From a virus, in the IMG/VR virus record IMGVR_UViG_3300017987_000070, positions 1 to 64,000 of that record: a stretch of DNA of 64,000 nt; one strand, written 5' to 3'. The notes below the pieces were generated by a model. That model was not told the origin of the DNA. It ran no database searches and saw only the letters and a list, made by a program, of their open reading frames with translations. Made by a program: the position numbers and the translations under genes. Of this stretch, positions 1,610 to 58,012 are shown piece by piece. Numbering within the stretch: the first letter of the stretch is position 1; every line of letters starts with the position of its first letter.

Positions 1610-3322
1610 ATGAAAGACATGCAAGAGATTGAACGCGCGCTTCGTATCGTAGAAGCGAAGTTGGCGCGCGTAAAGACCGCCGCCAAGGAGCGTCAAGCTC
1701 GAATCCGTGCCAAGATCGCGGGCCTGCAAGGCTTCGCCGCCTCGGAGGAAGCGACGGACGCACAGCGTCTAGAGATCCGCAAGGCTCTGGCTTCCCTTGA
1801 AGCCGGGATGCAGAACATCATGCCTCCCCTTGAGGACGTTGAGAAGGAAGTGGACCGTATCTACGGCGATCAGTCCCTCAACTCCACCTATTACTTCTCT
1901 CGCCGCAACCTCAAGAGCGCTTCTTCAAGCGCTTTGGACAAGTTTCACGACGAGTTGGAGGCGTTTCTTTACCCCCCAGGACAAGGGTCAAGAGAGCCTC
2001 GTGGCGATGTTGATTCCATGCTTAGTGTTTATTATCAAGATCTTGGGAGTGCAGATGAACGAAGGTTGATGGACGATTTGCCTGCAATGAAGAAGCTTTT
2101 GGAACGGGAAAAGCGTCGGCTGAACAATCGTAGAGCCTCGACCAAGCGTGACCCGAAGGTCGCAGCTTTCTTGCGTCAAAGCGAGGCGAGGGAGATCCCC
2201 TGGACTGAACTCACTTACGAGCAGGTTCAAGAGGTTATCGACGACATCTACGGCAACCAGAGCGACAACCAGACCTACTACTTCAACCGCGCTGCCCACA
2301 CTCTTCGCGCGATCGAAGCATCTATGGGAGGTCGCACTGAGATGTCTCTCGTAGACGTCATGAAGCAGATGGATTCTCTCTACGGAGACCTCTCCAAGAA
2401 TGAGACGTACTACCCCTCTCGTCGTCACGAAGACACGATGGACATGGTATCCATCGCAGGTGAAGACGAAGAGATGGAAGACGACGAGTCAAAAAAAAAG
2501 GACTCTAATTGGCAAGTAGACGAGCAGCACTACCTGCTCTCGGATGACTTCTCCGACTCGGGGCATCAGCGCATGTCAGGGTATGAGATCCCCGGCTACT
2601 TCGCTAACGACAACTTCGACTCTCATAATACGGTGGCTCCGACGTACCGCGTAGACAACACGGTGGATACCTTTGGTTACTGGGGCGACGAGGTGGACGA
2701 GATGCCTCACGTGGTCCAGAACCGTGCTCCGGTGCAAGCTCAGACGCGTGAGGCGGGTTCCATGAACCCCATCGCTAAGACCATCTATCAGCAGATGGGT
2801 GGCCGTCGCATGGGCGCCATGATTGGTGTGCAGCAGTACATCAACCTCCCGAACGGCCTCGGCATCAAGTGGCCAAACAAGCAGCGCTCCAGAGGCAACT
2901 ACGTTGAGGTGCTCCTCAACGGTAAAGACCTCTACGATATGACGTTCTACAATGTCTCCCGTAGTGGTAAGAAGCTCGTGAAGAAGTACGCTGACCTCTA
3001 CGCGGAGAGCCTCGTACCTGTCTTCGAGGACCAAACGGGCTGGTACCTGCGGATGTCTTCGGTCAAGACCGCAGCGCTTTCGGGCGCTGACAAGAACGTG
3101 CTCATGGCTTTCCTTGACCACCGTCCAATGGAAGGCAAGATGCTCGTCACCGATGGGGTCAAGCTGGAGAAGATGGGCATGGGAGGACGCGTCATGGCAG
3201 AGTGGGTTCGTGGTAAGGTAGAGGCCACAGATGACCCTCACACCCGCTCGGATGAGGTCATTCTTCGAGCCCTCAAAAAGCACACTCCGAGCAAACTACT
3301 CATCACCTCTCCTACGCTTTGA
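1610..3322 (+). CDS. Modular virion/head-associated protein (coiled-coil N-terminus, 3 internal repeats, conserved phage domain)
   Basis: 570 aa with RBS GAGG. Three D-x-(I/L)YG-x-x-S-x-N-x-TYY repeats, KTAA motifs, and an IAKTIYQQMGG...DLYDMTF...FEDQTG domain typical of phage hypotheticals. Confidence 0.65.
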   Translation: MKDMQEIERALRIVEAKLARVKTAAKERQARIRAKIAGLQGFAASEEATDAQRLEIRKALASLEAGMQNIMPPLEDVEKEVDRIYGDQSLNSTYYFSRRNLKSASSSALDKFHDELEAFLYPPGQGSREPRGDVDSMLSVYYQDLGSADERRLMDDLPAMKKLLEREKRRLNNRRASTKRDPKVAAFLRQSEAREIPWTELTYEQVQEVIDDIYGNQSDNQTYYFNRAAHTLRAIEASMGGRTEMSLVDVMKQMDSLYGDLSKNETYYPSRRHEDTMDMVSIAGEDEEMEDDESKKKDSNWQVDEQHYLLSDDFSDSGHQRMSGYEIPGYFANDNFDSHNTVAPTYRVDNTVDTFGYWGDEVDEMPHVVQNRAPVQAQTREAGSMNPIAKTIYQQMGGRRMGAMIGVQQYINLPNGLGIKWPNKQRSRGNYVEVLLNGKDLYDMTFYNVSRSGKKLVKKYADLYAESLVPVFEDQTGWYLRMSSVKTAALSGADKNVLMAFLDHRPMEGKMLVTDGVKLEKMGMGGRVMAEWVRGKVEATDDPHTRSDEVILRALKKHTPSKLLITSPTL

Positions 3323-3464: not shown

Positions 3465-4133
3465 GTGAGAGACAACGACTCATACATTTACCGTCGCGGC
3501 ACGACTCCCAACACACGAGTCGTCGTGAGCCAGAAGAACAAGATCTTCTCTGTCGCTCATGATAACGCCGCCTTCTCCCAGGTGGGCGTCATGTCCTCCT
3601 TCTCCGTTTCGGAGGCCCGTAGTGTCGAGCCCGTCCGTGGTATCGGTTACGGCGATCAGATTGCCGAGCTTGTCCCCGGTGTCACGGACCCCATCGGGCT
3701 CTCAATCGAGCGTCAGTTGCTCTACCTCGCGAACGCGCACCAAGTGTTCGGTTACGCAGGTGGTGTTGACGGTCTCGTGCGATCTCTGAAGCATCACCAG
3801 TGGCCGTTTGATATCAAGCACGAGCTTGTGTTCTCGCGTATCGCGACGAACGCTTCTGTTCCCAAGCAGGTCTCCCCTGCGACGGATGGCGCCAACGAGG
3901 CTCTCTTGACCTTCTTCGAGGCGTGCTGGCTCAACGACTACTCCTACGACTTCGCGGCAGACGGCGCGATGGTCGCGGAGTCGGTTTCAGCTACGGTCTC
4001 CGACATCGTAGACGGTACGAGCACCTACGGGCAGCTCGCTTCCGACGCCGAGTCCACGGGTAACAACCCATTCTCGGATGTCACGGGTGGTTCGTTCCGC
4101 TACGGTTCTGGTACCGGAGTCCCAACCTTCTGA
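3465..4133 (+). CDS. Tail tube protein
   Basis: Strong RBS AGGAGA before GTG and optimised codons. VGVMSSFSVSE..VEPVRGIG...ELVPG, PFDI and CWLNDYS..F...G..VAESVS match myovirus tube proteins. Confidence 0.75.
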   Translation: MRDNDSYIYRRGTTPNTRVVVSQKNKIFSVAHDNAAFSQVGVMSSFSVSEARSVEPVRGIGYGDQIAELVPGVTDPIGLSIERQLLYLANAHQVFGYAGGVDGLVRSLKHHQWPFDIKHELVFSRIATNASVPKQVSPATDGANEALLTFFEACWLNDYSYDFAADGAMVAESVSATVSDIVDGTSTYGQLASDAESTGNNPFSDVTGGSFRYGSGTGVPTF

Positions 4134-4162: not shown

Positions 4163-4196
4163 GGGGGATAGGAATGTCCTATCCCCCCTTCTTTTT
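4163..4196 (+). terminator. Rho-independent terminator
   Basis: gggggatagga/tcctatccccc stem followed by cttcttttt, after the tail tube stop codon. Confidence 0.75.
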
Positions 4197-5234
4197 GGAG
4201 CCTTACATGAACAAGCTAGCCAAACAACTGATCAAGCTCGGACATACGAATCCTGAACTTCGAGACCATCTTCGCCCTGTGTTGGATAAGATCGCCGCGC
4301 GGGTAGACTTTGGTGCTGTAGATTGGTATGAAACTTGGGCGGAGGGTTTTGAACGCTCTACAAGTGGTTTAGAATCTTTGGTCCGTCAAGTCAAAGGTGT
4401 CGAAGACCTTTCGTTCGACATCAACTGGAATAAGCATTACATGCTAATCGAGGTAGATACCTCTCTAGTTTCACCTTCCAAGGGAGGTAGACCTCATAGC
4501 TTTGATCTGTATGTAGCTTGGTATGATAAGAAGCCAGAGGTACTTACCGTAGAACTAGAGGGTGCAAAGGACATTTCCCTGCCGCTAGATTTGAAACGCT
4601 ACGTCAAACCGGGTTCAGACCCGGATTGGGATGGAGTTGCTGATCATGTGGATGACGTTCTCTACAAGAACTTCAAAAAGGTTTTGACGAAGGCTTTAAG
4701 CTCTGAAGCCAAGAAACACAAGCTGGTCACACAAGCTGAGTACGATAAGATGGTAGCCGAGAAGGAGAAAGCCGAATCGCCTGCCCAAGAGAAAAAAGAG
4801 CGTGCTAAATCAGCCCCAAGTATTGAGAAGCTTGTTCCTGCTCTTAAGGAAGCTCTCCGCAAGGATCGTAACATCTATGTAAACGGAATCGACCTCCCCG
4901 GTAAAGGTCGTGCTGAAAGAAATGAGATCCTCGTGGATTTCTATGACGAGAGAGTACCAGACCTCTTTGACGATCCCAATTTTTATTCAGCGGTTGACCG
5001 TGCCAACGAGGCCGTTGAGAAGCTTCTGAAAGCCGAGCTGCGACCCTTCAAGTCTATGATCACTAAGATGAACATCGAAGGGGACATGGATGACGCCAAC
5101 AGGTTTCTTCTCGCAATCAAGTTGAAGTGACCCACTTACCCTCATTTTGGAGCCTACCATGAACAAGCTCGCAACACAACTCATTCGTCTGGGACATGAG
5201 CATCCTGACCTTCGAGACCACCTTCGTCCTGTGT
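4192..5234 (+). repeat. Two copies (about 4192-4290 and 5144-5240) of a ~95-bp RBS+leader-coding repeat
   Basis: ttttggagcctt/tac(c)atgaacaagct...cctga(a/c)cttcgagacca(t/c)cttcg(c/t)cctgtgttggat occurs at both gene starts. Confidence 0.8.
4207..5130 (+). CDS. Leader-bearing hypothetical protein (putative internal head/cargo protein)
   Basis: RBS GGAG then ATG at 4207 (the ORF-track start 4174 lies in the terminator). Begins MNKLAKQLIKLGHTNPELRDHLRPVL. More AT-rich than neighbours. Confidence 0.7.
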   Translation: MNKLAKQLIKLGHTNPELRDHLRPVLDKIAARVDFGAVDWYETWAEGFERSTSGLESLVRQVKGVEDLSFDINWNKHYMLIEVDTSLVSPSKGGRPHSFDLYVAWYDKKPEVLTVELEGAKDISLPLDLKRYVKPGSDPDWDGVADHVDDVLYKNFKKVLTKALSSEAKKHKLVTQAEYDKMVAEKEKAESPAQEKKERAKSAPSIEKLVPALKEALRKDRNIYVNGIDLPGKGRAERNEILVDFYDERVPDLFDDPNFYSAVDRANEAVEKLLKAELRPFKSMITKMNIEGDMDDANRFLLAIKLK

Positions 5235-5650
5235 TGGATGAGGTCCTCAAGGTGTCGAGTCAGGGTCTCAAGCTCAATGACCTCAAGCTCAACTCTTCGA
5301 CGCGCACGAAGGTAAACACTTGGATGGCTCGCTTCGATCATGATGCCCCTGCGGCAGAGATGGCCGGAGGGAGGGGGTACTTCCCGGCGAACACTGGAGG
5401 TATCTTCCAGAACGCCTCTCGCCCCATGAACCTGGGTGACTTCCGAGACACCGTGGCTATGGGCAATAACACCATCCTCTTCGGCGTCGCGAGTCATGAC
5501 CGTCGTGGGCAGAGGTTCGGGCGCGGCTTTCTGACGACCATGCCTAGCTTCGACGCGGCGAACCTCGCTCGCCAAGGCATCGAGTGTGTTCGGGTTGACG
5601 ACGTTCACCACCTCTGGTACTGTTACATTCCGTTCACTTACGGCTCTTGA
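5159..5650 (+). CDS. Leader-bearing hypothetical protein
   Basis: RBS GGAG, ATG at 5159. Begins MNKLATQLIRLGHEHPDLRDHLRPVL. Confidence 0.7.
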   Translation: MNKLATQLIRLGHEHPDLRDHLRPVLDEVLKVSSQGLKLNDLKLNSSTRTKVNTWMARFDHDAPAAEMAGGRGYFPANTGGIFQNASRPMNLGDFRDTVAMGNNTILFGVASHDRRGQRFGRGFLTTMPSFDAANLARQGIECVRVDDVHHLWYCYIPFTYGS

Positions 5651-5661
5651 GGGAATACCTC

Positions 5662-6726
5662 ATGGACAAACTGTCAAATAAACTCATCAAACTCGGGTAC
5701 ACGAACCCTGAGCTTCGCCCGCACCTCCGAACCCTCTTGAAAAATCTCGATCGTCAAGATACCCATATCCGAGATAGATCGGACAAGATCGCTGGAGGTA
5801 AGATTGAGCCTCTAGGTTTTGACCCTTCAGGGCGCCCTATGTACCTGCACGAGCAGGTGTTCGGCAAGAATAGCTACGTGCGTGACCTCCAGAAGCGCTC
5901 AATCGATCGTAAATACAATTTAGCTATTCGGCACGCAACAAATGGCAGTCTGGCCGAAACCTTGGGCAAGACTCTTAGGCGCAAACTGGAAGGGATATTC
6001 GAAGCAGAGCCAGAGAGCACGCGTGGCGCGGTAATTGACGAGGGTGATGAGGACGGTCAGGCGTGGGCTCGTCTCGTACTGAGGCTTCCCAACACAAACC
6101 TAAAGCTATCTCGGTCCAAGGCCCACACCTTTGCTGTGATTATCGCACAAACCTATTCGGTGGATAAGGTTTGTGTGGCTCAACTCGACGACCTTTCGGA
6201 GTACAATGGCGATCTCTATCTGGAGATTTCATGGTGGGGAGCGATCTGGGACGAAGACCTCGTGAGCTACTACCGTGAGGAAATGGAGCGCAAGCGCAGG
6301 GAAGAAGAGGAGAAAGAGCGTCTCCGTCTTGAGAAAGAGAAGGCTCGTGAAGAGGAAGAGCGCCGTAAGAAGGACCCTGCCTACATTCGGGGCCAGATCA
6401 TGTCTGAACTCGAATACGCCTTGAAAAGTCTGGACTCGGGGAGAGGACGTTACGTTAGTAGTCCCACTCTCGAAGGGAGCTTCATCTATGGAAGCTACCG
6501 CTCCAACCTCGACGAAGACGGTAGTGAGTATGACGACTACTACGAAGACGAGGATGGTGACGATCCGGGCGAGTCCAACTCCTATGAGGAGGCCGTTTCT
6601 TTCGAGGAGGAACGTGCGGAAGAGCGCATAATGAACTACCTTAAAGAGTACGAAAAGCACATCAAAGGCGTTTTTGTTGAGCAAGGCGACAAGAACTACA
6701 TGGAAGTAACCGTGACTCTTAAGTGA
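5662..6726 (+). CDS. Leader-bearing hypothetical protein with charged coiled-coil
   Basis: RBS GAGG, ATG at 5662. Begins MDKLSNKLIKLGYTNPELRPHLRTLL. E/K/R-rich middle and acidic C-terminal domain. Confidence 0.7.
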   Translation: MDKLSNKLIKLGYTNPELRPHLRTLLKNLDRQDTHIRDRSDKIAGGKIEPLGFDPSGRPMYLHEQVFGKNSYVRDLQKRSIDRKYNLAIRHATNGSLAETLGKTLRRKLEGIFEAEPESTRGAVIDEGDEDGQAWARLVLRLPNTNLKLSRSKAHTFAVIIAQTYSVDKVCVAQLDDLSEYNGDLYLEISWWGAIWDEDLVSYYREEMERKRREEEEKERLRLEKEKAREEEERRKKDPAYIRGQIMSELEYALKSLDSGRGRYVSSPTLEGSFIYGSYRSNLDEDGSEYDDYYEDEDGDDPGESNSYEEAVSFEEERAEERIMNYLKEYEKHIKGVFVEQGDKNYMEVTVTLK

Positions 6727-6748
6727 GGCTCACGTACAGTTAGAGCAG

Positions 6749-6785
6749 AGGCCCCCGGAACACACTCCGGGGGCTTTTCTTTTTG
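6749..6785 (+). terminator. Rho-independent terminator
   Basis: gcccccgga/tccgggggc stem followed by ttttcttttt. Confidence 0.85.
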
Positions 6786-6835: not shown

Positions 6836-8827
6836 ATGTTCATTACAGCAAACGTGCCCAAGAAGTACGAGCACATTGACTTCAAACCACCCCAAGGCGT
6901 AGCCGACGCTGCCGAGCGTGGTCTTGAACTCCGCAAAGAGCAATCTGGCGACAAGGCGGGTCTTACGGCTGAAGAGGCCAGTGAGCAGGGCATTGGGTCT
7001 GGAGTCCAGCGCGCCACGAACCTGAAGAACCGCACCAACGTGTCCCCCGAAGTCATCGGGCAGATGGTAGGGTTCTTCGCGCGTCACGGCAAGAACATTG
7101 CCAAGGCTCGTAAGCTCACGACCCAGGAGGAGCAGCTCAAGTCCAACATGTACGTGAGTGACTTGCTCTGGGGAGGTGAGCCCGGCGAGCGGTGGGCCAA
7201 TAAGGTCAAGGAGCAGATGGAAGCCGCAGACGAGAAGGAGAAGAACGCTTCTCTTGCCTCCAGAGTCGCAAGCAGGTACCTCATGGCAGGGAAGCTTGAG
7301 CCGCCTCCCGTCATGTATGCCAAGGCCCTGAAGTGGTTCCAGGGACGTATCGCGCGCCGTATGGAAGATATCATAGACCTTGAGCGCGATAAAGTGCAGG
7401 CTCCAGACCCCTCGTCTCAGTACGAAGACGCGCCCATGTCTTCTATGGAGATCAAGATCGCGGTGAACGAACTCCTCAAGCTCAAAGCCATGTTCAGGGA
7501 CATGGGTAATGAGGATATGATCTATCAAAGAGAGGAGACGATCGATACGTCCCAGGGTCCGCTCAAGGTGAAGCTCTTACCCTCCAATGAAGCTCTGCTG
7601 TCTTACGGGCCGGACACCTTGACGACTCCCCTGGACGACTTCAGGTTCCAGCAAACAGTGGGTCCTTGGATTCGCAAGACGGGCATCACTTCTCGCCGCG
7701 TTTCCAGGGACTACCAAGACAAGATGCGTCGCTACGAAGGAGAGAACCTGACCTACGAGCAACGTGAAGCGAGGCTCAGGGAGCTTTCTGAAGTCGAGGC
7801 AATGTTCCGCCCCTGGAAGGGTAACGATCGTGGCATTGACAACCCTCTGGACGTGGAACTCGACGGGTGGTATCGAGAACTCGACGAGTTCACCTTCAAA
7901 GACCTCCCTCCCCTTTCAATGAAACTGACCCTCTCCAGGGGTGAGATGAACGGAGGTTTCATCTCGGTGTCGGATGACCCTCTAGTCATGATTGACATGC
8001 CCAATGACGTAAGCACTCGTCCGGGCGCTCGTGAGTTGGTCTCCAAGCTCGAAGATCTCCTGCGTCACGAGATGCGTCACTACGCTCAATACCTGTTCCG
8101 TTTGTATCGTGACATCGAAGAGAGAGGTTCCATGTACGGGAATGAGGTCGGACTACCGCACTCTCTCCGTACCCTGGAGTACGATACCATCGTAGCCGAT
8201 GAGATCACTGAACTCCGAAGGTATCTCAAGCATGTCCCCGGAGACCTGCACCCCGTGGTGTTCAAAGCCTGGACCCACGCCTTGACCTCCAGGGACAGGG
8301 ACGACCTCAAGAGGTATATGGTATGGATCAAGCAGAACCCTCGACACGCCATGCCTTCCCGCTTTACGGGCGCTCCTATTGACCCCACACAGGGACGCGA
8401 GTTTTTCCGTCTCATGAAAGATCACGATCACACCAAGTGGAAACGAGCGGTCAAGACCCTGGCTCGTAACGTGAAGATGGGTAAGACCGCGCAAAGGGCA
8501 GCTAACGTCGTGCGTCGTCTCCTCGCGGAGAAGCTGCCTCACATCGCTCGCGTTGACCCCAAGTTCGCGTATGACCTCTACCGTCAGGAAGACCTCAACA
8601 GGGGCAACAACAGCTCCAGGCGAGACTATCCGACCACGGATCTCATGTCTCGTAAGGTCCTCAAGAGCCTCGACGAGAGGATTGAAGCGTTGTCGGACAA
8701 GATCGAACGCTACCAAGACCAGGGCGTGGACCACTCGGGCCTCTGGGATGATCGTGAAGACCTCATGCGTGAGCGCGAGGACATCACCCGCTTCCTCAAA
8801 GATACGCTGGGCTTCAAGGGGAAGTAA
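6836..8827 (+). CDS. Multidomain protein: phage LLWGG-type N-terminal domain + HExxH zincin-like domain
   Basis: N-terminal FKPPQGVADAAERGL...GVQRA...FFARH...DLLWGG..G..WA domain common in phage head-associated proteins. Also LRHEMRHYAQ and the linkers ASRVASRYLMA and KTAQRAANVVRRLLA. Confidence 0.65.
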   Translation: MFITANVPKKYEHIDFKPPQGVADAAERGLELRKEQSGDKAGLTAEEASEQGIGSGVQRATNLKNRTNVSPEVIGQMVGFFARHGKNIAKARKLTTQEEQLKSNMYVSDLLWGGEPGERWANKVKEQMEAADEKEKNASLASRVASRYLMAGKLEPPPVMYAKALKWFQGRIARRMEDIIDLERDKVQAPDPSSQYEDAPMSSMEIKIAVNELLKLKAMFRDMGNEDMIYQREETIDTSQGPLKVKLLPSNEALLSYGPDTLTTPLDDFRFQQTVGPWIRKTGITSRRVSRDYQDKMRRYEGENLTYEQREARLRELSEVEAMFRPWKGNDRGIDNPLDVELDGWYRELDEFTFKDLPPLSMKLTLSRGEMNGGFISVSDDPLVMIDMPNDVSTRPGARELVSKLEDLLRHEMRHYAQYLFRLYRDIEERGSMYGNEVGLPHSLRTLEYDTIVADEITELRRYLKHVPGDLHPVVFKAWTHALTSRDRDDLKRYMVWIKQNPRHAMPSRFTGAPIDPTQGREFFRLMKDHDHTKWKRAVKTLARNVKMGKTAQRAANVVRRLLAEKLPHIARVDPKFAYDLYRQEDLNRGNNSSRRDYPTTDLMSRKVLKSLDERIEALSDKIERYQDQGVDHSGLWDDREDLMREREDITRFLKDTLGFKGK

Positions 8828-8829
8828 AC

Positions 8830-9705
8830 ATGCCCAAGACGCACTACAAGCTGGACCGATCAGACGCCTCCAGACGCGCGTATCGGGACGCAGAGCGCGA
8901 GTTGGAGGAAGCCAAGGCGTATGGGTTCATTACGTGGAAAGAACTCCACATCGTACCTCTCAGGGAGATTGAACCCCAAAAGGTGTGGAACCCTCCCCGT
9001 ATCGAGCGCATCCGTGAGGGGATAGAGCGTGGGGTAGCCCTCCCTGCGGTGTCTCTAGCTCGAAACGAGGGTGGTCGTTACAAATACAGCATCTCGGACG
9101 GCATTCATCGCTACAATGCTTCAGTGGAAGCGGGGTTCACTCATATCCCCGCCATGATCACCTTCTCCAAGGAGACGCCCGAACTCTTGGAGGAGCCCAA
9201 GGTCTTCCAAGAGGGTACTTACGTTCGCTTCAAGAGGCCCATAGACGGCTTCGAGGTTGGATACCTCGTGGAGAACATCTTCGGGGATGTCTTCGTGACA
9301 GTCGCAGGCAATGCGACGGACGCCGAGTGGATAGGCGACATCCCTGCTAGCAGCTTCGAGGAGGAGATTGACCCTCCCCGTCAAATCAAAGAGAAAATTC
9401 AAGGACACTGGTTCATGCAAAAAACCTCTTCCCGTATCGCCTCGACCTACCTCTCCCACATGCTTCGTGATCGCACGGCAAAAAACCTACCCAAGAAGGT
9501 CGAGGAGTACGTCAAGAAATTCGAGGACGAGGGCAAAGACCCAGGGTACTCTTACGCGCTGGCTTGGAGCATCTACTGCAAGCATAAGAACCCCGACTCG
9601 CCTCACTGCATGGCAGACAGTTACCTAGACAATCAGGGTAAGAAGTCGACTCAAGACCTCTCCCAAGCGGTACTCAGGCGCTATCTGGAGAACCTGAATG
9701 ACTGA
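8830..9705 (+). CDS. ParB/Srx-like N-terminal domain multidomain protein
   Basis: LPAVSL...YSISDGIHRYNAS...GFTHIPA is the ParB/Srx DG-HR motif. Small C-terminal module YALAWSIYCK. Confidence 0.7.
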   Translation: MPKTHYKLDRSDASRRAYRDAERELEEAKAYGFITWKELHIVPLREIEPQKVWNPPRIERIREGIERGVALPAVSLARNEGGRYKYSISDGIHRYNASVEAGFTHIPAMITFSKETPELLEEPKVFQEGTYVRFKRPIDGFEVGYLVENIFGDVFVTVAGNATDAEWIGDIPASSFEEEIDPPRQIKEKIQGHWFMQKTSSRIASTYLSHMLRDRTAKNLPKKVEEYVKKFEDEGKDPGYSYALAWSIYCKHKNPDSPHCMADSYLDNQGKKSTQDLSQAVLRRYLENLND

Positions 9706-10477
9706 CATCGCATACCACGTCACCTACGCTCGGAACCTCGAAGGTATAGGCTCGTCTGGGCTCGTACCCGGCAGAGGTTCTAACTTCGGTGGAGCCTACC
9801 GAGGGCACTCTTCAGGGCGCATCTTCCTGTGCGACTTCAAGTCTGTCAAGTTTTGGATTGGCAAACTGTGGGACATGGCAGAGGCCAACTCGGATACGCC
9901 GCTTGAAGACGGCTTGATTCCCATCGCGCTCAAGGTCAAGGTGCCCCGAGGGATGGAGCTTCAGGTAGACGAGGCCGGGTCCAGAGACTCACGAGGCGAA
10001 GCCTACTTCGTCGAGGACACGATCCCGGCGAGTAACATCCTCCATTGGGACGGTTCCTCTTATAGTCCAGTGTCAGGGGCAGATGTAGAGTACCTCATTG
10101 ATGTAGCCAAAGACAACTCAGAACTCGAAGACTACGGTGACGGTGAGGTCTTCTACGACTTCGGATACGGAGATCATTTCATGCCCAGACAAGCCACAAT
10201 GGCCCAAAGAGTCGCTACCCGTGTTATGACGGATCAGATGGCCTCACGTGTCGCATCTCGCGTTCTCGTAGCCGAAAACAAGCCCACCAATCCTGACCTT
10301 TGGGAGAAGGTTCAAGAGCTTGTACGGGGCGACCGTAAGAGCCTCTCAGTAGGTGACAAGACCTACGAGTCTCCTAATGACGGCAAGGGCTTCAAGAAAC
10401 ACCCCAGCGCTTACTCGAATGGTTTTGCAGTTAAGGTTTACAATGATCTCGGCGGCGGCTGGAAAGCAAAGGACTGA
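9698..10477 (+). CDS. ADP-ribosyltransferase-like (Tpt1/KptA-type) domain + PSAY-type phage domain
   Basis: AYHVT...LEGI...GLVP...RIFL and IP...I motifs. C-terminal KPTNPDLW...HPSAYSNGFAVKVY..LGGGW. Confidence 0.6.
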   Translation: MTDIAYHVTYARNLEGIGSSGLVPGRGSNFGGAYRGHSSGRIFLCDFKSVKFWIGKLWDMAEANSDTPLEDGLIPIALKVKVPRGMELQVDEAGSRDSRGEAYFVEDTIPASNILHWDGSSYSPVSGADVEYLIDVAKDNSELEDYGDGEVFYDFGYGDHFMPRQATMAQRVATRVMTDQMASRVASRVLVAENKPTNPDLWEKVQELVRGDRKSLSVGDKTYESPNDGKGFKKHPSAYSNGFAVKVYNDLGGGWKAKD

Positions 10478-10480
10478 ACC

Positions 10481-12145
10481 ATGACTCGATACATCCACTT
10501 CACTGATATGTCCGGTGCGAAGGCAATCCGCCACTCGGGTACCCTCATGGCGTCGTCTTTCATCAGCGGCGTGTACGCGGTCAAGGAAGGTTCTCCCTTC
10601 GTTCCCGGCGTACAGCAGACCACTCTAGGTCGCGCCAAGAACCGCAAGGTCGCAGTAGTCTTCACGACCCCCATCAAGCCCGACTACTGCGACCCGGAAG
10701 AGTGCGTCTGGAGGTTGGATGAGATCCCGGTCAAGGTCGAGCGCGTCATGCTGGCCTCTCAAGCGGTCAAAGACTACCTTCAGGTGGTCAAGGAAGCTCG
10801 CACGCCCTATGCCCTGGGTCTCCCAGGTGGCCCCTGCCACATCATCAGGGATGTGGAAGCAGAGAAGCTCCCCGAGCGCGTCAAGCAGGAACTCATCGAA
10901 GACATCGAAAAGGGTAAGGACCTCTCGAACTCGGCAGCGGACTTGATCTATCCTCCGCAGAGGTTCAACGCCAAGGCAGACCTTTTCTCGAAGGTCCTCC
11001 TCACCTCCCACGCTCAGTACCGTATGAACCTCCGTGGGATTACGCTCCCCGAGATTCAGGACGTGTTCGTCGAGTTCGACAAGTGGTACAAGGCTCGCGC
11101 CAAGAAGCCCAAGAGCCTCACCGGCGAACAGCGCAAGCTCATGACAGACCTCGCGTATGGAGAAGCTGCGAGGTTTGAGGGCAGCAGGTCAGGGATCACC
11201 ATCGTGTTTGCGGTAGACTCTCGTAAGAACGAAGCTCGCCTCGTCTCGTGTTGGTGGACGAACTCTCCCAAGACCCCCAAGCCCACTCCAGGGCAGTGTG
11301 ACTTCGTTCCGTATCTGGACAAGGATCGCAGCTTCGAGAGGCCCTCCATCCTGGGGCACACGCTCATGAAAGACATCGCCCACAAGGTCGCCCGCCGCGT
11401 ATGGTTCACGAGCCGTCAAGCTGCCAAGCCCGGTCCCGACCCGGACAAGGGAGATGGCTTGAACACTTGGTTCTCCGACAAAGCCAAAGGGGGCGATTGG
11501 GTTGCCATTTCTCCGGTCAAGAAGACCATTGAGAAGGAGGACGGCACCAAGAAGACCTTCGAGCCCGGTGACATCGTAGGCCCATGCGGTGACCCTGATG
11601 GAGAGTGGAAAGACCTCACCAACGACGGAGATGATCCCCTCAAGTGCCTGAACAAGAGCAGGGCTCAAGGTATGAGCAAGAAAGAGCGCGCCGAGGCTGC
11701 GAAGGCTAAAAAGCGTGAGGAGAAGAAGGCTCCCGAGGGCCAGAAGCCCACGCATGTCGACACGAAGCAAGATAAGAAGTCTCATGAGATCGCTAAAGCC
11801 GTGGCACGCCGTCTGTTTTCTCAAATGCAGCGCACCTCAAAAAAGACCTATCGAGACCTTCTAAATGAAAACGAAGTCTCGGAAATCCAAAGACTTCTGG
11901 GCATTGCTCGTAATAACTTGGATGTTTACCAAGCGACAGATACTTTGGATAGGAATGACCTCCAGTCAAGGGAAGTCCTGAGCGTTCTCGAAGAGGTTAC
12001 AGGCTCAGCCGCCTTGTTTGAGGTTGACCGGGGTCGTATGCATCACGACCTCGTAGACCACATGAATACCTGGGAGAAGATCTGTAAGGCTGCTCGTTTC
12101 GACTGGAAAGCTAGCTACCAAAAAACGTTGGACATCTTTTCCTGA
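10481..12145 (+). CDS. Multidomain protein: ART-like (H-F-T) domain, DUF4258/RelE-like domain, WF..WV..CG..KC domain
   Basis: YIHFT...AKAI..SG.L...GVY; LTSHAQYRMNLRGIT; GLNTWFS...DWVAI...CG...KCL...GMSKKERAEAAKAKKR. Domains are separated by KEA, RQA and RTS linkers. Confidence 0.6.
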   Translation: MTRYIHFTDMSGAKAIRHSGTLMASSFISGVYAVKEGSPFVPGVQQTTLGRAKNRKVAVVFTTPIKPDYCDPEECVWRLDEIPVKVERVMLASQAVKDYLQVVKEARTPYALGLPGGPCHIIRDVEAEKLPERVKQELIEDIEKGKDLSNSAADLIYPPQRFNAKADLFSKVLLTSHAQYRMNLRGITLPEIQDVFVEFDKWYKARAKKPKSLTGEQRKLMTDLAYGEAARFEGSRSGITIVFAVDSRKNEARLVSCWWTNSPKTPKPTPGQCDFVPYLDKDRSFERPSILGHTLMKDIAHKVARRVWFTSRQAAKPGPDPDKGDGLNTWFSDKAKGGDWVAISPVKKTIEKEDGTKKTFEPGDIVGPCGDPDGEWKDLTNDGDDPLKCLNKSRAQGMSKKERAEAAKAKKREEKKAPEGQKPTHVDTKQDKKSHEIAKAVARRLFSQMQRTSKKTYRDLLNENEVSEIQRLLGIARNNLDVYQATDTLDRNDLQSREVLSVLEEVTGSAALFEVDRGRMHHDLVDHMNTWEKICKAARFDWKASYQKTLDIFS

Positions 12146-12160: not shown

Positions 12161-12820
12161 ATGGCCTATTCAAAAGAGATTCAGAAGCATTTGGACAAGA
12201 GGAACCTATTATCGAAGGGTACGTGGACTGCCCCGAACAAGCTCCGTCTCAGGAGCATCTGGCAGGAGATGTGGTTCATGCTTCCCTTCCTGGCATTCGT
12301 GACCTTGGTGACCGTGGGGTTCTTCTCGGCGGCAGCGGCTCAAGGTGCGCTTGGGGTTCTCCTGGGGTTCTTCGGGGGATGTTGGGCTCTCGGCGTATGG
12401 GGGGCAATCTGGCATGGTCACCTACACTGGAAGCCCTTCTATGAGGTCCTGGGGGTATACGTTCGTTTTGACGGTCCCGAGTGGTATGTCCCGCCCGAGA
12501 TCATGCAGGCGTTCCTCCAAGAGATCGCAGACAAGTGGGACGAAGCAGGTGTCGTGGACTTCCCTGCCGTGCAGTTGCTTGAAGGCTCACATCTGTACCT
12601 CGTTGAAGAGCGTCCGGTAGACCCCCTGGGTAGGATTGAGCATGAGCGCATGGTCGGGTTGACCTACCCTTCCAAGCAACAGTCTTACGTCTACGCTCCG
12701 TATGCTCTCTCGCATGGAGGCGCTGGGTACGAACTCCGCCTGCAAATGGTACACATTTTGTTCCCTTACCGCTCAGAGCAAGATGACATTGAGTGGTTCG
12801 AAGAGAACGATGTGCTCTGA
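12161..12820 (+). CDS. Membrane protein with two N-terminal transmembrane helices
   Basis: Strong RBS GAGGAGGGAG. Hydrophobic segments WFMLPFLAFVTLVTVGFF and LGVLLGFFGGCWALGVWGAIW. Confidence 0.7.
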   Translation: MAYSKEIQKHLDKRNLLSKGTWTAPNKLRLRSIWQEMWFMLPFLAFVTLVTVGFFSAAAAQGALGVLLGFFGGCWALGVWGAIWHGHLHWKPFYEVLGVYVRFDGPEWYVPPEIMQAFLQEIADKWDEAGVVDFPAVQLLEGSHLYLVEERPVDPLGRIEHERMVGLTYPSKQQSYVYAPYALSHGGAGYELRLQMVHILFPYRSEQDDIEWFEENDVL

Positions 12821-12842
12821 CCTTATCTCATAGAGACCTTTG

Positions 12843-12877
12843 GACCCTCGGCATTCGTGTCGGGGGTCTTTTGTTTA
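12843..12877 (+). terminator. Rho-independent terminator
   Basis: gaccctcggca-ttcg-tgtcgggggtc followed by ttttgttt. Confidence 0.8.
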
Positions 12878-26221: not shown

Positions 26222-26245
26222 TCTGACCCTCTACAGGTGCTTCAC

Positions 26246-29200
26246 ATGCCTTCCTCCCTTTCTACTCGAGTAGCGCTCCAAGAGTTCTTCCGCTCGTATC
26301 CGTGCTCGGAGTCGTTCCGTAAGTTCGCGCTCAAGCATCCCGACAAGATCGCCCGCCTGTACTGCGTGGAGCATCCTGAACTCATGGGGAGGGACTGGAC
26401 GAGGAAGGTCAAGGCCGCTGACCCCCAGTACACGTACTCTTCTACGGTCCGCCGCGCCTTGCGTAAGGCTTACCGCAAGAACATGGGCCTCTTCGACCTC
26501 TACGAAGACCTCAAGAACAAGCTTTCAGACCCTACTACCCCTTACATCCCCGAAGATGAGGAGGGGAAGCTTCCCTCGGAGATCTTCGAGTCTGAGATGC
26601 GTCGCCTTGTCGTCCGTAAGGAGAAGGCAGAGAAGAAAGCCCTGCGCGTTCACTACCAGCGCTTGAAGGTTTTCTTGGAGCGTATGGAGAAAGAGTCGTA
26701 CCCTTCCAAGGTCCTCGTCAAGAAGGTGAACACGGTCTACATCGATCTCATCTCTGTACTGTGCAGGCAAGCCGATGTGTATGTCAAGGCACAAACCAAG
26801 GGTAACCCTGGGTGGGCATCGTTCCGTAAGATGAGCGAACAGGAAGAAGAGACTGCACGCCTCAAGCATGAGAACCCTGACCTCTACGAGAAGATCATGG
26901 AGGAAAGGAAGCTTCGTAAAGAGATTGAAGAGGCGATTGAGAAGCAGATCGTCCGTGACGGGCTCGTCCCAACCCGCACGATGCTCTACGGTTCCGTTGT
27001 TCAGGTTGGTAAGGACGTGCGCACGAGCATGACAGGGGTAGCCGCTTCGGATGTAGGCGCGCCCGAGGTTCTCATTGCTCTCGACGAGGATCGTGAGGTT
27101 TTTGAAGACGCCCTCTCTCGTGGCTTGCGGGTTGACCTCAAGATCGGTTCCAAGACTCACCGTGTAGCAGAGGTGCTCCCTGAAGGCAAGTTCCTTCTCG
27201 ACCCTCCCTTAGCCGAAGAGTCTTCGGCGTTCGAGTACACGGCTTCGATCTATGAAGAGCTGGTGTACGATAAAGATGGGGATGTGATCGGAGTGGACGA
27301 TTTCATCAAGGAGCGCAAGCGTCACCTCTCCGCGATGCGCAAGCTTCAGCGCGTCTTCCCTGAAGACCTCGAAGACCTCAGAAAGTACCCCGAGGCAGAC
27401 CTCGACGCTCTCTTGGAAGGTCGTGAGGTCACTTACGCAGCTCTTACCGACGACATCGCGAAGCAAAAGCCCGTGACCCGTATTCTCCCCTGCGTGGAGA
27501 TCTTCGGTGAGCGTGTGATCTCCGAGGGTCGCTTCAAGGGCTTCGTCTTGGATGACATGATCAACGCCAACGGTCGTCAAATCGAAGGCACAGCGTATGA
27601 CTATGACCCCAAGCTCAGGCGTCCCGTGTCCCTGGAAACTCATATGGAAGACGGGTCCCTCAAGGTAGAGCTTCCGGCCAACCGTGAACCTTATATGACC
27701 GTGGACCCGGACGGAAGACTGTACCTCAAGATCCCCTCGACCCGTGAGTTTACGCACTTGCGTAAAGCGGTCCGTGGTATCTCCAAGGAGACCGTCGATG
27801 TCGAGTATGTCGAAGGAACCCGTAACTCGGTGTTCAAGTTCGATCCCAGTCAGTTCATGATGGTGCGGGATGCTCTGGCGTCTATGGCCATGAGCAAGAG
27901 CGCGATGGAACTCGTACAGGAGCACTTCGAGAAGCAAAGGGAAGAGTCTCAAGAGGCCGCCTACGCGAACATCCACGAGTTCGACGCCGACCTCATGGGA
28001 GGGTTCAAGGAAGGCTTCGACTTCTTCAACAAACAGAAGCACGCGATGGCTTGGCTTGAGCAGAGAGGTAACACAGGGCTCCTTGCTCTTGATACCGGAT
28101 GTGGGAAGAGCCTCACGAGCGTGGGATACCTCAAGAACATCGTCAACCAAGCCGACGAGGAGCTTGAGCCCAACTCGATTCTCTTTGTCTGCCCCGCCAA
28201 CCTCCGAGGCAACCTTGAGCATGAGGTACGTCAGCGTCTCAAGGACCCTGAGCCCTTCCTCATGTTGATTGAAACGATGTCTTACGCTCAGTTCAGCCGC
28301 GAAGACGAAGATGTCATGGACCGTTACTATGCCGTCGTCTTCGATGAGGCTCATAACCTCGCCTCTTTGAACTCGAAGCGTGCCCGTAACGCCATGCGTG
28401 CTCACCCTCGGAAGATGCTCATGACAGCTTCTCCTATGGAGAACGATGTCATGGATGTACGCATCCTCGCGGGTATCGCGAACAATGAGGACTTGCTCTC
28501 CAAGGAAGGCAAGCAGAGGGTCCGCGAGTTCCGCGACCGCTTCACCGAGCGCATCGGAGGACGCACGGTAGGGATCAAGCAGGACGCCTCCTTGAAGGAG
28601 GCCATGCAAGATTGGGTCCAGGGTAACGTGTTCTTCGCTCACAAGCTCGACATAGAAGAGTATGACCTCAAGAAGCTCGAAACAGAGACTCGTACTGTGA
28701 TGATGGACGCCGACACAGAAGAGGAGTACCGTCGCGCTGCGGATGAGGTCAAGACGGTTCTGGAGGGGATGGTACGTCGCTACCGTGACCGTGACCAAAC
28801 CGCCTCGGACTCGGAGATTGACGCTGCGATCATCAAGCTCGCAGGTCACTTCAAGACTCTGGGTCAGATCGTCAACCTCCCCAGGGGAGGACAGCCCTCT
28901 CCCAAAGTCATCGAAGCCTCCAACATCATCCGGGAGCGCGTCGAGAGCCGTGGACGCACCATGCTCTGGACGGACGACCCCGAGGTGGCAGAGGCTACCG
29001 CACGTGACCTCTCACGTGAGCTTCCAGGCACCGACCATGTGGCCGGTCTCTCAGGTGAGATTCAGGTCTGGCGTAACGGGGAGAAGGTCAAGAGCTACAC
29101 CCCTCGAAACTACACGTTCGGGGAACAGTCTTACGACCGCACCAACTGGCGTATGGGAGTCGTGAACCACGTCCTCAAGCCCTCTCTCTCCATTGTCTCT

Positions 29201-29602
29201 GCGACCCTGACCTCCGCGTACACCACGGGCATGAACCTACAGGAGTTCGATACGATCGTTCACCTCGACAGGGACTCATGGTCGTCTGAGGATATGAAGC
29301 AGAGAACCGCGCGCGCCTACCGTCAAGGTCAGGACAAGCAATGCAGGGAGATCACCCTTGACACGGTGTTTGAGAGCCGTCAGGACGACCTAGACCTCAC
29401 TCTCGATGAGATTCGCGGCATCATGCAGAACATGGAAGCGGACCTCTTTGACAAGGTGATCGTCGAGAGCCAGAGCAAGGCTACGGGTAAGGAGTTCTTT
29501 GCGATGGATCAGATAGCGGCTCGTAGCATCCATCTGGACCGTAAGATCTTCGAGCATGTCCTCTCGCCGTACATCAAAAACGCTCCTGAAAGCACAACCT
29601 GA
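26246..29602 (+). CDS. SNF2-family (SF2) helicase/ATPase with long N-terminal extension
   Basis: Walker A DTGCGKS, DEAH, TASP, TTGMNLQ and QRTARAYRQGQ motifs. Confidence 0.9.
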   Translation: MPSSLSTRVALQEFFRSYPCSESFRKFALKHPDKIARLYCVEHPELMGRDWTRKVKAADPQYTYSSTVRRALRKAYRKNMGLFDLYEDLKNKLSDPTTPYIPEDEEGKLPSEIFESEMRRLVVRKEKAEKKALRVHYQRLKVFLERMEKESYPSKVLVKKVNTVYIDLISVLCRQADVYVKAQTKGNPGWASFRKMSEQEEETARLKHENPDLYEKIMEERKLRKEIEEAIEKQIVRDGLVPTRTMLYGSVVQVGKDVRTSMTGVAASDVGAPEVLIALDEDREVFEDALSRGLRVDLKIGSKTHRVAEVLPEGKFLLDPPLAEESSAFEYTASIYEELVYDKDGDVIGVDDFIKERKRHLSAMRKLQRVFPEDLEDLRKYPEADLDALLEGREVTYAALTDDIAKQKPVTRILPCVEIFGERVISEGRFKGFVLDDMINANGRQIEGTAYDYDPKLRRPVSLETHMEDGSLKVELPANREPYMTVDPDGRLYLKIPSTREFTHLRKAVRGISKETVDVEYVEGTRNSVFKFDPSQFMMVRDALASMAMSKSAMELVQEHFEKQREESQEAAYANIHEFDADLMGGFKEGFDFFNKQKHAMAWLEQRGNTGLLALDTGCGKSLTSVGYLKNIVNQADEELEPNSILFVCPANLRGNLEHEVRQRLKDPEPFLMLIETMSYAQFSREDEDVMDRYYAVVFDEAHNLASLNSKRARNAMRAHPRKMLMTASPMENDVMDVRILAGIANNEDLLSKEGKQRVREFRDRFTERIGGRTVGIKQDASLKEAMQDWVQGNVFFAHKLDIEEYDLKKLETETRTVMMDADTEEEYRRAADEVKTVLEGMVRRYRDRDQTASDSEIDAAIIKLAGHFKTLGQIVNLPRGGQPSPKVIEASNIIRERVESRGRTMLWTDDPEVAEATARDLSRELPGTDHVAGLSGEIQVWRNGEKVKSYTPRNYTFGEQSYDRTNWRMGVVNHVLKPSLSIVSATLTSAYTTGMNLQEFDTIVHLDRDSWSSEDMKQRTARAYRQGQDKQCREITLDTVFESRQDDLDLTLDEIRGIMQNMEADLFDKVIVESQSKATGKEFFAMDQIAARSIHLDRKIFEHVLSPYIKNAPESTT

Positions 29603-29616
29603 GTAGGAGACCTCCA

Positions 29617-29880
29617 ATGAAACCTGATACCCTTGAACAGTGGACCACCTACCTCTCGGGACTCACAGATGAGCGCCTCGGTGTCGAATCTATCACGGCG
29701 AACTCATTGCAATTCGTCCAGATTCTCAAAGAAGAGGGCAAGGAGCCCGGTGAGATCGGTGCGATCCTGAAAGCCTTCGCGGTAGAGCTTGACAAGAGGG
29801 GGATGCCTTTGAGTGATCGTGGCCCTCGTCAGATGGTGTCCTACTACCGACTGATCAACGATTACCCTGATGGAAAGTGA
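29617..29880 (+). CDS. Hypothetical protein
   Basis: RBS AGGAG; 87 aa; coupled to the next gene. Confidence 0.65.
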   Translation: MKPDTLEQWTTYLSGLTDERLGVESITANSLQFVQILKEEGKEPGEIGAILKAFAVELDKRGMPLSDRGPRQMVSYYRLINDYPDGK

Positions 29881-30340
29881 TACCATGCTCACACTTGCTT
29901 CACAGCTACTACACGTCGCGAAAGACTTCCCCGAGTTCTCCGAAGACTTGGACCCTCTCATCGCGAACGTAATCTATACCCAAAGCAAGAGGGAGGCCCA
30001 AGTCAAGACGGCGGGCACCAAGCTCAAGGACATCATGGGAGGCAAGTCTATCCTGGGACTGAAGAAGAGCGTGGCCCACCGTATCGAGCGTCAGCTCAGG
30101 ATGTATGGGCTCGACGCAGACTCGGCAGCGATCCTTCTGGGGTCAAGAGAGATCAAGATCGTCATTACGGCGAGCATCACGGACCCTGATGAAGATCCTT
30201 ATACCGACTTTGCGGCGAACTACATCGCTCAGGAGATTGTTATGGATCTCCAGCGGTCCCTTGCGTACAAGGTCACCGGGAAAGGTCGGTACTCCACGTT
30301 CACCGACTCGGTAGTAATCACCCTCTTTCAGAAAGTCTAA
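29870..30340 (+). CDS. Hypothetical protein with degenerate leader and KTA motif
   Basis: TLASQLLHVAKDFPEFSEDLDPLI resembles the leader of the 4207/5159/5662 proteins; followed by QVKTAG. Confidence 0.6.
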   Translation: MESDTMLTLASQLLHVAKDFPEFSEDLDPLIANVIYTQSKREAQVKTAGTKLKDIMGGKSILGLKKSVAHRIERQLRMYGLDADSAAILLGSREIKIVITASITDPDEDPYTDFAANYIAQEIVMDLQRSLAYKVTGKGRYSTFTDSVVITLFQKV

Positions 30341-55937: not shown

Positions 55938-56723
55938 TCAGATCTTGAGAGCCTTGCTCACCTGAGTGTAGCCCTGATTGTAAAGGTCAAGGGCTTCCTC
56001 ACGGTTCATGAGCAAGTTCGCGCCGCTCTTGGTGGTCTTGACCCGTATCGTCCTGGCGAACACGGCATCTTCCATGTGCTCTTTGTCGATAGCTCCCATC
56101 ATCGTGCCCAGAACTGCGAACCCGTAGTCGAGTAGAGACTCCACGGGCTTCCTCTCTGGGTCAGAGACGACCTTGATTCCGATCACGTCTTCACCTGACC
56201 CGAAGATGTCCAGTGGGAACCCCACCGCGACGCCTCCGTCTACATAACGCGCGCCTTCTATCTCGACGGGAGTGAACGCGAAGGGTACCGACATGGAAGC
56301 TCTCACCGCCAAGGGCAAATCGGCATCGGGGGTATCATGTGAGGAGAACACCACGCTCTCTTGCGTGTCAATGTTCACGGTCCCTACGTGCAGAGGTATG
56401 ACCGTATGCCCGAAGGTACGTGACATCTCCTGACGGAAGACGTCAAGGAAGGCGTGACCTTTGATCAAGCCCCAGGATAAGGGAGGGAACCACGACGGAT
56501 CGATGAGACCGAGGTTGTCCCCCGGAGCCGTATCCAAGATCACCTGCTTGATGTCCTCTGAGGACTTCCCAGAAGCCACGAGAGCGGCGATGATACTCCC
56601 ACCCGATACCCCGGCTATCTCCTCTATCTCAAAGCTCTCTGTGAGCCTGGAAATGGCTCCAGCGTGAAGGGGATACAGAAGCCCAGAACCGGAAAGCACG
56701 ACTTTGATTTTGGGTTTGCTCAT
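55938..56723 (-). CDS. Patatin-like phospholipase
   Basis: VVLSGSG, AGVSGGS nucleophile elbow, AVRASMSVP and YVDGG catalytic Asp. Confidence 0.9.
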   Translation of the reverse strand: MSKPKIKVVLSGSGLLYPLHAGAISRLTESFEIEEIAGVSGGSIIAALVASGKSSEDIKQVILDTAPGDNLGLIDPSWFPPLSWGLIKGHAFLDVFRQEMSRTFGHTVIPLHVGTVNIDTQESVVFSSHDTPDADLPLAVRASMSVPFAFTPVEIEGARYVDGGVAVGFPLDIFGSGEDVIGIKVVSDPERKPVESLLDYGFAVLGTMMGAIDKEHMEDAVFARTIRVKTTKSGANLLMNREEALDLYNQGYTQVSKALKI

Positions 56724-57778
56724 CAGGCTCTCCCTCTCATGATGTCATAGAGCAGATCGTTGATTTTGCGCACTATCTTGAAGACATGGCGGTTCCCCGT
56801 AAGGTACCCGTCCTCGTCGTCGGTTCGAGGCCAGTCGAAGACTTCTACGCTCTCGTGCTCGTAGCCGTTGCCTTCCACTATAATCTCAAAACGGATGTTC
56901 GTATCATCTTCTCTCACGGGCATCATAGTTACGAGGTAGTGGCCTTGTCGTCCCTCGTGGGCATCGCGACCGAAGCTACCCCGGACTTCAGGAGCACCTC
57001 CGGCCATACTGGACACGCTAGCAGGTCCGTCAAACATGCCTCCCATCCCGCGCGCGAACTCGGCGTACATCTCTTCGACGGGTAGGGGCTCTCCTTCAAG
57101 CTTATCGTAACTCACTACAACGTGAGGATGCTTGGCGAGGAACGCTTCTACCTCAGCCTTTTGAATCTGAGGGTTCCCTTCCACGTAAAGATAGCTTGGA
57201 ATGACCTTGAGCTTCAAGAGCGTGCCCTTGGGCATGTTCCGGTCCTCAAAGCTCAACGAACCCAGGTTGGGGGCGAAGTTGTTAGCTACCCAAAGCGCCT
57301 CCTCGTTGGTCAGAGCTACCTTTCCCAAGACCAAATTGATGATACCCTGGTTCGCTTTGGTCCCGAGTAAGACTTTACGTGCGAGGGCTTTGTTTTTAGA
57401 CAGGGACGAGAATGGTAGGCTTCGGTCATTGTATACCTTGGCGAATTCAATCTTGTACCTTGATGCAGGCTTATCGTAGGTTCTCAAGGTGAGAGGCCCC
57501 ATTGTGCGTACCTCATCGGGGAACTTATCCAACGCTCGATGCACGTAAGGGACGACCTGATTCTCGGTACGAGCACGATCAATCGCATCCATCTCCACCA
57601 CGACCCTGAGTACCTGCTTGTACGTGCGGAGGTCTTTCTTGCCGTTGAGCACAGAGCGGAGTTCGCCAAAGAGCCGGTTGAAGTCGTCGTTGGCGATCAA
57701 CACTCGTAGGTGCGGTCTAAGTTGAGGGTGAATCTTTCCGAGCTTTATAAGATTATATCTAAACTTATCTTCAGTCAT
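56723..57778 (-). CDS. Leader + FGELRS domain + LRR-like protein
   Basis: Begins MTEDKFRYNLIKLGKIHPQLRPHLRVLI, then FGELRSVL...VVPYV...L..FP and LRR-like INLVLG, LGSLSF. Confidence 0.7.
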   Translation of the reverse strand: MTEDKFRYNLIKLGKIHPQLRPHLRVLIANDDFNRLFGELRSVLNGKKDLRTYKQVLRVVVEMDAIDRARTENQVVPYVHRALDKFPDEVRTMGPLTLRTYDKPASRYKIEFAKVYNDRSLPFSSLSKNKALARKVLLGTKANQGIINLVLGKVALTNEEALWVANNFAPNLGSLSFEDRNMPKGTLLKLKVIPSYLYVEGNPQIQKAEVEAFLAKHPHVVVSYDKLEGEPLPVEEMYAEFARGMGGMFDGPASVSSMAGGAPEVRGSFGRDAHEGRQGHYLVTMMPVREDDTNIRFEIIVEGNGYEHESVEVFDWPRTDDEDGYLTGNRHVFKIVRKINDLLYDIMRGRA

Positions 57779-58012
57779 TGGGTTTACCCTCATTCGTCCG
57801 CATCAAGAGTGATGCCGCCGTGATTGAACAGTGGCCTTCTGAATGCCGCAGTTCAGGTTTTTGGTCAGTACGGATAACATGGCATCGTAGTGTGAACGTT
57901 TGATTCGATAAGATCGGCATAACGTTTGATGGTCTCTCCCTCCAGATAACGAAAGATAACCAGAGAGGTCGAATGTCCTCTTCAAGTCTCTCTTCGAGAG
58001 CTTTCCTCGTCC

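Follow-up and report, generated by a model that had tools for sequence, protein, structure and literature searches.

Phages inject proteins that disarm host defenses; how large uncultured phages choose and load such cargo is, to our knowledge, not known. In T4, the internal proteins IPI-III and Alt carry a capsid targeting sequence (CTS) that is removed by the gp21 prohead protease, and in herpesviruses and tailed phages the scaffold carries a C-terminal capsid-binding amphipathic helix, which is released by an assemblin-type protease at a maturation site cut between Ala and Ser. Encapsulins use cargo-loading peptides, short terminal peptides that dock diverse cargo enzymes inside an HK97-fold shell. 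Phage-type polyvalent proteins, as described by Iyer, Burroughs, Anand, de Souza and Aravind (2017; PMC5512222), are multi-effector, virion-delivered chains of 2 to 15 unrelated domains per polypeptide with embedded peptidases, whose virion packaging, delivery and proteolytic processing have already been predicted. Here we analyze four adjacent genes at positions 6836-12145 of a 64,000-nucleotide stretch of phage DNA (the window), which is the first 64 kb of the 85,796-bp linear IMG/VR record IMGVR_UViG_3300017987_000070. An initial reading of the window (the sequence-only reading) took these genes for strings of cargo domains and did not recognize such a system as described, a claim not supported as stated, since the architecture, the domain repertoire (in part putative here) and the apparent virion-gene setting match those of the polyvalent proteins in PMC5512222. 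Only a short helical peptide at the module junctions (the tag) appears to be new, and it probably labels proteins of the virus particle, either as an address or for cutting.

The record has a CheckV completeness of ~17%, making it a fragment of a huge phage, and this 85.8-kb fragment encodes ~65 large open reading frames (ORFs), many of more than 1,000 amino acids (aa). The tag follows a 13-residue helix motif, h-A-x-(R/K)-V-A-x-R-(Y/V/F)-(L/W/M), of which there are eight copies, all in the four cargo genes, two per protein, and all where the sequence-only reading had placed them. A regular expression for the motif gave six matches in the 65-ORF, 27,725-aa proteome, all in the four cargo genes, compared to 0.086 expected from shuffles. 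Because this expression was drawn from the same instances on which it was tested, we rebuilt a position-specific scoring matrix (PSSM) only from instances in other phages; HMMER was uninformative with a 13-residue profile, and position-wise scoring was used instead. The other-phage PSSM returned eight matches at 12 bits or more, exactly the eight sites and none elsewhere, versus 0.39 in shuffles, and only 1 of the 61 other proteins of the record reached 9 bits. The motif is thus confined to these genes in the whole proteome, and the observation of the sequence-only reading holds.

Across 46 instances of the tag, the Ala is kept in 40, the Val in 35 and both Arg residues in ~34, and the helix is amphipathic, with a mean hydrophobic moment of 0.54 compared to 0.34 for the same proteins. 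In 27 of the 46, positions -10 to +3 of the helix include a [KR]-x-[AS] site (background, 22%), an enrichment whose binomial p-values are inflated because the instances are partly homologous; the bare K/R-x-A/S tripeptide alone carries little information. An Ala stands two residues past the tag's Leu in 43 of 87 instances. The eight copies in the array are written in differing codons, indicating conservation at the level of the peptide and not of the DNA, and the peptide is kept between phages of 55% and 64% GC. Pfam/PHROGs scans of the four cargo proteins did not reveal the tag, nor did term searches of PMC5512222 or literature searches on DUF5872, on 'capsid targeting sequence' and on huge-phage cargo. 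The term searches of that paper gave no conserved inter-domain peptide, and the word 'linker' is absent from it.

The four genes lie on the + strand and follow one another with a spacing of 2 nt, then an 8-nt overlap (of the gene 3 start with the gene 2 stop), then 3 nt. Their parts are given below, with homology high-scoring segment pairs (HSPs) and the AlphaFold2 predicted local distance difference test (pLDDT) where they define a border.

6836..8827, + strand: gene 1 (P0001, 663 aa), consisting of N-module, tag, HExxH module, tag and C-module
6836..7252, + strand: N-module (aa 1-139, 'PKKYEHIDF...WGGD...QMEAAD'), a widespread phage domain
7241..7288, + strand: junction 1 (aa 136-151), K-N-A-S and helix tag; 142 homology HSPs end at aa 120-169; pLDDT <50
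7289..8482, + strand: HExxH module (aa 152-549), a putative zincin-like peptidase; H411-E412-x-x-H415 and E448 invariant
8480..8530, + strand: junction 2 (aa 549-565), G-K-T-A and helix tag; stand-alone homologues stop here; pLDDT <50
8534..8824, + strand: C-terminal module of gene 1 (aa 567-663)
8830..9705, + strand: gene 2 (P0002, 291 aa), consisting of a weak ParB_N-like domain (aa 46-111), tag, small Cys module and C-terminal tag
9418..9480, + strand: junction 3, K-T-S-S, helix and R-T-A; the 13-aa helix is an indel relative to both syntenic relatives
9640..9693, + strand: junction 4, K-K-S-T and helix tag at the gene 2 C-terminus; in the relative L019, genes 2 and 3 are fused here without the helix
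9698..10477, + strand: gene 3 (P0003, 259 aa), consisting of an ART-superfamily-like domain (aa 1-163), tandem tags and a PF19197-type module (aa 193-259)
10187..10273, + strand: junctions 5 and 6 (aa 164-192), R-Q-A-T and two tandem helix tags; pLDDT <50 at 167-190; homology break
10481..12145, + strand: gene 4 (P0004, 554 aa), with four modules (aa 1-100, 101-297, 311-431 and 449-554)
11372..11428, + strand: junction 7 (aa 298-316), helix tag and S-R-Q-A-A
11774..11842, + strand: junction 8 (aa 432-454), K-K-S-H, helix tag and Q-R-T-S
11825..12142, + strand: last module of gene 4, AT-rich (GC 0.475); missing from L019, present in the relative L018

The ends of BLASTP alignments against all gathered sequences pile up at aa 120-169 of P0001, at aa 170-199 of P0003 and at aa 100-119, 290-329 and 420-459 of P0004, and the helices at P0001 139, P0003 167/180 and P0004 298 and 436 lie on these homology breakpoints. 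A helix is thus present at four of the five homology-defined borders in this phage, the sole exception being near aa 100 of P0004, where 'VKEAR' (aa 102-106), listed among the linkers by the sequence-only reading, is a real module border without a helix. That reading's placement of the linker at nearly every domain boundary therefore describes this phage and not the wider family, in which the helix stands straight after the N-module in only 13 of 116 proteins. Homology breakpoints, stand-alone homologues and AlphaFold2 domain structure together define ~11 modules over the four coupled polypeptides. The AlphaFold2 models display domains with pLDDT of ~90 that are separated or flanked by tags, and the tags are modeled as helices with pLDDT <50, indicating that they are not packed against either neighboring domain.

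Two relatives carry a syntenic array, L018 on a 23.6-kb contig and L019 on a 188-kb contig. Both keep the flanking gene order, but within the arrays entire modules are present or missing, with the junctions as borders. In L019, genes 2 and 3 are fused, gene 3 is without its last module and gene 4 without two of its modules; the helices are nonetheless kept and have become C-terminal. In L018, the N-module is joined straight to the ParB-like gene, and the HExxH gene is a different one. At junction 3, the 13 residues of the helix are cleanly absent from both relatives, as an indel between K-T-S-S and R-T-A, sites that both retain. P0006, which is 68% identical to P0003, has an unrelated C-terminal module directly after the first helix, and the inter-tag segment of P0001 exists in other phages as the stand-alone proteins P0182 and P0183, which start with a tag and end where the second junction of P0001 starts. 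Exactly two strong tags are present in 10 of the 11 polypeptides of the three syntenic arrays. Such gain, loss, fusion and splitting of modules, together with their breakpoints and stand-alone forms, bears out the description of these genes as strings of unrelated, interchangeable modules, and the tag is a real portable peptide element that marks their borders and is conserved as protein. Of the two modules that had been singled out as AT-rich, the one at 11825-12142 is so (GC 0.475 versus 0.556, 2.4th percentile), and the one at 1915-2140 is marginal (0.496, 7.8th percentile).

The modules themselves are poorly matched by known families. Pfam/PHROGs scans of the four cargo proteins gave only weak matches to ParB_N, phrog_2859 and phrog_4715, and PDB sequence searches with the four returned nothing. 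For P0002, ParB_N scored 20.7 bits, under the cut-off of 26.3, and phrog_4715 had an E-value of 6.6e-4. The model of P0003 aa 1-163, a region with no Pfam match, has Tpt1/KptA, DarT and pertussis S1, members of the ADP-ribosyltransferase (ART) superfamily, as its top Foldseek matches, which are weak (E-values of at least 7e-3, TM scores of ~0.25-0.34); the C-terminal module of this protein is a PF19197-type domain found in P0003 relatives. The HExxH motif and a downstream Glu of P0001 aa 152-549 are invariant in 11 sequences. This module had no Pfam match, and Foldseek searches of PDB and wide VIA searches produced no convincing fold match; it is rare, with 14 matches among 1.84 billion representatives.

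At least 170 proteins of 364-1,161 aa are related to the N-module, many of them on contigs of 266-438 kb, and in them it is fused to PolyA_pol, InPase, 2H phosphoesterase, TopoIB, PAP2, superoxide dismutase, C39 and C45 peptidases and other domains. In 116 N-module proteins the PSSM located 56 tags versus 2.3 in shuffles, and in 175 gathered proteins it located 87, of which 14 are terminal compared to 3.6 expected (N- and C-termini together). A 266-kb phage record of 64% GC illustrates this range of positions: the tag stands at the end of a TopoIB-like and a HAD_SAK_1 enzyme, at the start of a small protein and between modules of larger ones. [KR]-x-A-[ASD] sites flank the N-module on both sides (upstream in 37 of 69, background 4.7%; downstream in 69 of 102, background 9.5%). 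In P0140 the N-module is joined to an XkdF-type prohead protease (Peptidase_S78_2) and in an ORF of L012 to a Mu-type protease-scaffold (Mu-like_Pro); by its Atlas model it resembles domains of prohead-protease, MuF and portal clusters, a structure match that we treat as a lead only. Because the N-module recurs fused to prohead proteases and, by the Atlas match, to MuF and portal proteins, a head location is plausible.

Two groups of fusions were seen alongside. In P0116, P0130, P0138 and ORFs of L003 and L008, the tag and K-R-A-C repeatedly stand before a C45/Ntn-hydrolase-like module ('...ALLKNRDRNY'), which places the tag at the point where such enzymes self-cleave and expose the catalytic Cys. 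In P0016, P0017, P0021, P0135 and P0161, the N-module and small PF19197-type modules are joined to superoxide dismutase and Dps/ferritin-like domains, suggesting that oxidative-stress enzymes may be candidate virion cargo.

The explanation that we consider best, and to which we give about an even chance of being right, is that the four translationally coupled genes represent one phage-type polyvalent protein split into four polypeptides, a string of ~11 unrelated small modules that would comprise a head-associated N-module, a putative HExxH peptidase and ParB-like, ART-fold, PF19197-type and other modules. The junction element of ~13-20 residues would be built from a basic-x-Ala/Ser-Ser/Thr site, then the amphipathic Arg-striped helix and often a following x-A. 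We infer that the helix may serve for docking to a conserved partner in virion assembly (capsid interior, scaffold, protease or portal), which would recognize it and load the cargo into the particle, and that the small-residue sites beside it may be where a maturation protease frees the modules.

Several observations weigh against this explanation. The helix is dispensable at some joints, being missing at junctions 3 and 4 in relatives; at least one tag is present in only 40 of the 116 N-module proteins, and the protease-fused N-module proteins, P0140 and the L012 ORF, carry none. Two tags per polypeptide exceed the needs of an address label. The neighbors of the array resemble tail or baseplate genes and a membrane protein, not head genes. 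No capsid, portal, prohead protease or terminase gene is recognizable in the ~17%-complete record (PF05065, PF04586 and PF03237 were searched), and PF03420, PF07068 and PF05065 had no match in three other tag-bearing records, all fragments; since these head-gene searches ran on fragments, their null results are no evidence of absence.

A chance resemblance of Ala/Arg-rich helices might be suspected from the shortness of the motif and from the origin of the first regular expression in its own instances. It is refuted by the PSSM from other phages, which returns those eight sites and no others (0.39 expected), and by the coincidence of tag positions with independent homology breakpoints, and its probability is negligible. 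The tag might instead be a passive linker, a helix-forming spacer that tolerates module shuffling and is kept by recombination between linker-coding DNA; module exchange falls exactly at the tags, as such a linker would have it. The difference in codons among the eight copies led us to reject a DNA-level recombination linker, and the persistence of the peptide across the two GC contents and its enrichment at protein termini, where nothing is linked, likewise disfavor a passive role, which we hold to be very unlikely. A conserved partner that reads the tag for docking would account better than a passive linker for residue-specific conservation, for a basic and amphipathic helix that appears unpacked in the models, for occurrence at either end of single-domain enzymes and for the presence of one or more copies in each polypeptide.

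Two further alternatives give the tag a function other than head loading. If the array were a self-processing polyprotein, the embedded HExxH metallopeptidase would recognize the helix and cut the adjacent sites before or after injection, and the tag would have no docking role. The invariance of HExxH and the downstream Glu in the module family, the HExxH protein in the L018 array, the frequency of C39- and C45-type peptidase domains in N-module proteins and the autoproteolysis by embedded metallopeptidases predicted by Iyer et al. (PMC5512222) are all consistent with this. The rarity of the HExxH module, set against a widespread tag, indicates that it is not the general reader of the tag, which weakens the case; in addition, many tagged proteins have no peptidase, and terminal tags on single-domain enzymes leave nothing to cut apart. 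The HExxH model also has no zincin fold match, a point of uncertain weight. We judge self-processing to be quite unlikely. The tag might also work in ejection or in the host, with the Arg-striped helix binding DNA, the tape-measure or tail channel, a host membrane or a host protein, such that the modules would travel with the DNA or be localized after entry. The array shares its unit with a membrane protein and adjoins tail and baseplate genes, there is no head gene nearby, and the helix is basic and amphipathic, all of which speaks for such a role; residue-specific conservation, however, would be expected of a helix that fits a defined groove in a protein more than of one that binds membranes or DNA in general, and the fusion partners of the N-module are head-assembly proteins. 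We therefore regard a role in ejection or in the host as unlikely.

Docking with protease release could extend beyond this array. That the K/R-x-A-S site and the RVAxRY(L) helix form a general, position-independent load-and-release code of uncultured huge phages is a tentative proposal, which we would sooner doubt than assert. If it were true, a phage could add, drop and swap injected enzymes by cassette exchange, and the tag would be the phage-cargo counterpart of the herpesvirus scaffold M-site and capsid-binding tail, ready-made for packaging foreign proteins. A short conserved peptide that sits at the ends of interchangeable enzyme modules, and at the borders between them, in many huge phages would make cargo loading directly testable; it would explain the turnover of effector repertoires by module exchange, would assist in predicting virion cargo from sequence alone and could be used to load proteins into phage particles.

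The cargo genes belong to a five-gene unit with a membrane protein, bracketed by two strong terminator-like hairpins between which no sigma-70-like promoter was found.

6747..6778, + strand: terminator-like hairpin with a 13-bp stem and a T-run, directly upstream of the array
12161..12820, + strand: fifth gene, a 219-aa membrane-spanning protein without a tag, kept in both relatives
12842..12869, + strand: terminator-like hairpin that ends the unit

Baseplate wedge proteins, a spike trimerization domain, an SNF2 helicase, an RNA ligase/phosphoesterase, a UvrD helicase bearing inteins and a head-decoration-like protein are recognizable in the record, with the baseplate, spike and tail-like genes on the same strand as the cargo array. 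No DNA similar to the window was found in the phage collection. The SNF2 helicase (26237-29602) has a 580-aa N-terminal extension, lies inside the baseplate/spike operon and has no tag (top PSSM score, 7.6). Beyond the window, at 71604-76715 of the genome on the - strand (L014:8604-13715), the 1,703-aa UvrD-type helicase contains intein and LAGLIDADG elements that interrupt it, and the unrelated huge-phage record G001 has a comparable intein-bearing gene (98071-100827). A 222-aa protein (3465-4133) is by far the best-conserved gene among the relatives, with 88% and 96% identity versus 45-77% for its neighbors; it had no family match and may be a tube or other core virion protein. The 570-aa protein at 1610-3322 has three 'IYGDQSxNxTYYFxRR'-type repeats and several V-K-T-A-A sites, and relatives match it only in parts, indicating that it is modular too.

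A second shared element is an N-terminal leader of ~30 aa, 'KLxxxLIKLGxxNPELRxHLRPVL', followed by K/L-I/V-A/S, on otherwise unrelated proteins. It is carried by the window genes 4174-5130, 5147-5650, 5647-6726 and 56723-57793 (- strand) and by 70277-70834 (- strand) of the genome, is degenerate in 29870-30340 and is conserved in L018. The K/R-x-A/S sites that the sequence-only reading had noted after the leaders of 4207, 5159, 5662 and 29870 were inspected by eye only.

Compared to the described systems, the tag resembles the T4 CTS in being a short portable peptide beside a small-residue protease site on unrelated, putatively packaged proteins, and the T4 CTS can carry foreign cargo. The CTS is strictly N-terminal, unrelated in sequence and cut at L/I-x-E, whereas the tag is internal, C-terminal or N-terminal, occurs twice per protein and is flanked by K/R-x-A/S rather than x-x-E sites; all eight tags of the window are internal or C-terminal, and N-terminal copies are found only in some relatives. 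The gp21-type S77 protease had no match in the three other tag-bearing records, which are all fragments; the search did not extend to the record of the window itself. Encapsulin cargo-loading peptides differ from the tag in motif, in the lack of cleavage, in belonging to a non-viral compartment and in being present once per cargo. The layout of the scaffold proteins, a small-residue site (x-A before S) directly upstream of an amphipathic helix, recurs here, as in the C-terminal tag ...K-K-A-S-A-S-R-V-A-A-Q-Y-L-S-S-R (followed by the stop), and the site frequency (27/46 versus 22%) and hydrophobic moment (0.54 versus 0.34) given above conform to it; unlike in scaffolds, the element is on enzymes and repeated inside polyproteins, with binding and cleavage putative. 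Although the chain is split into four coupled genes and is headed by an unnamed N-module instead of MuF or a portal, the locus shares with the polyvalent proteins its many unrelated effector and enzyme domains in a chain, the PolyA_pol, InPase, 2H phosphoesterase and TopoIB modules of its relatives and, as putative features, an HExxH peptidase, an ART-fold domain, a ParB-like domain and a place among virion genes.

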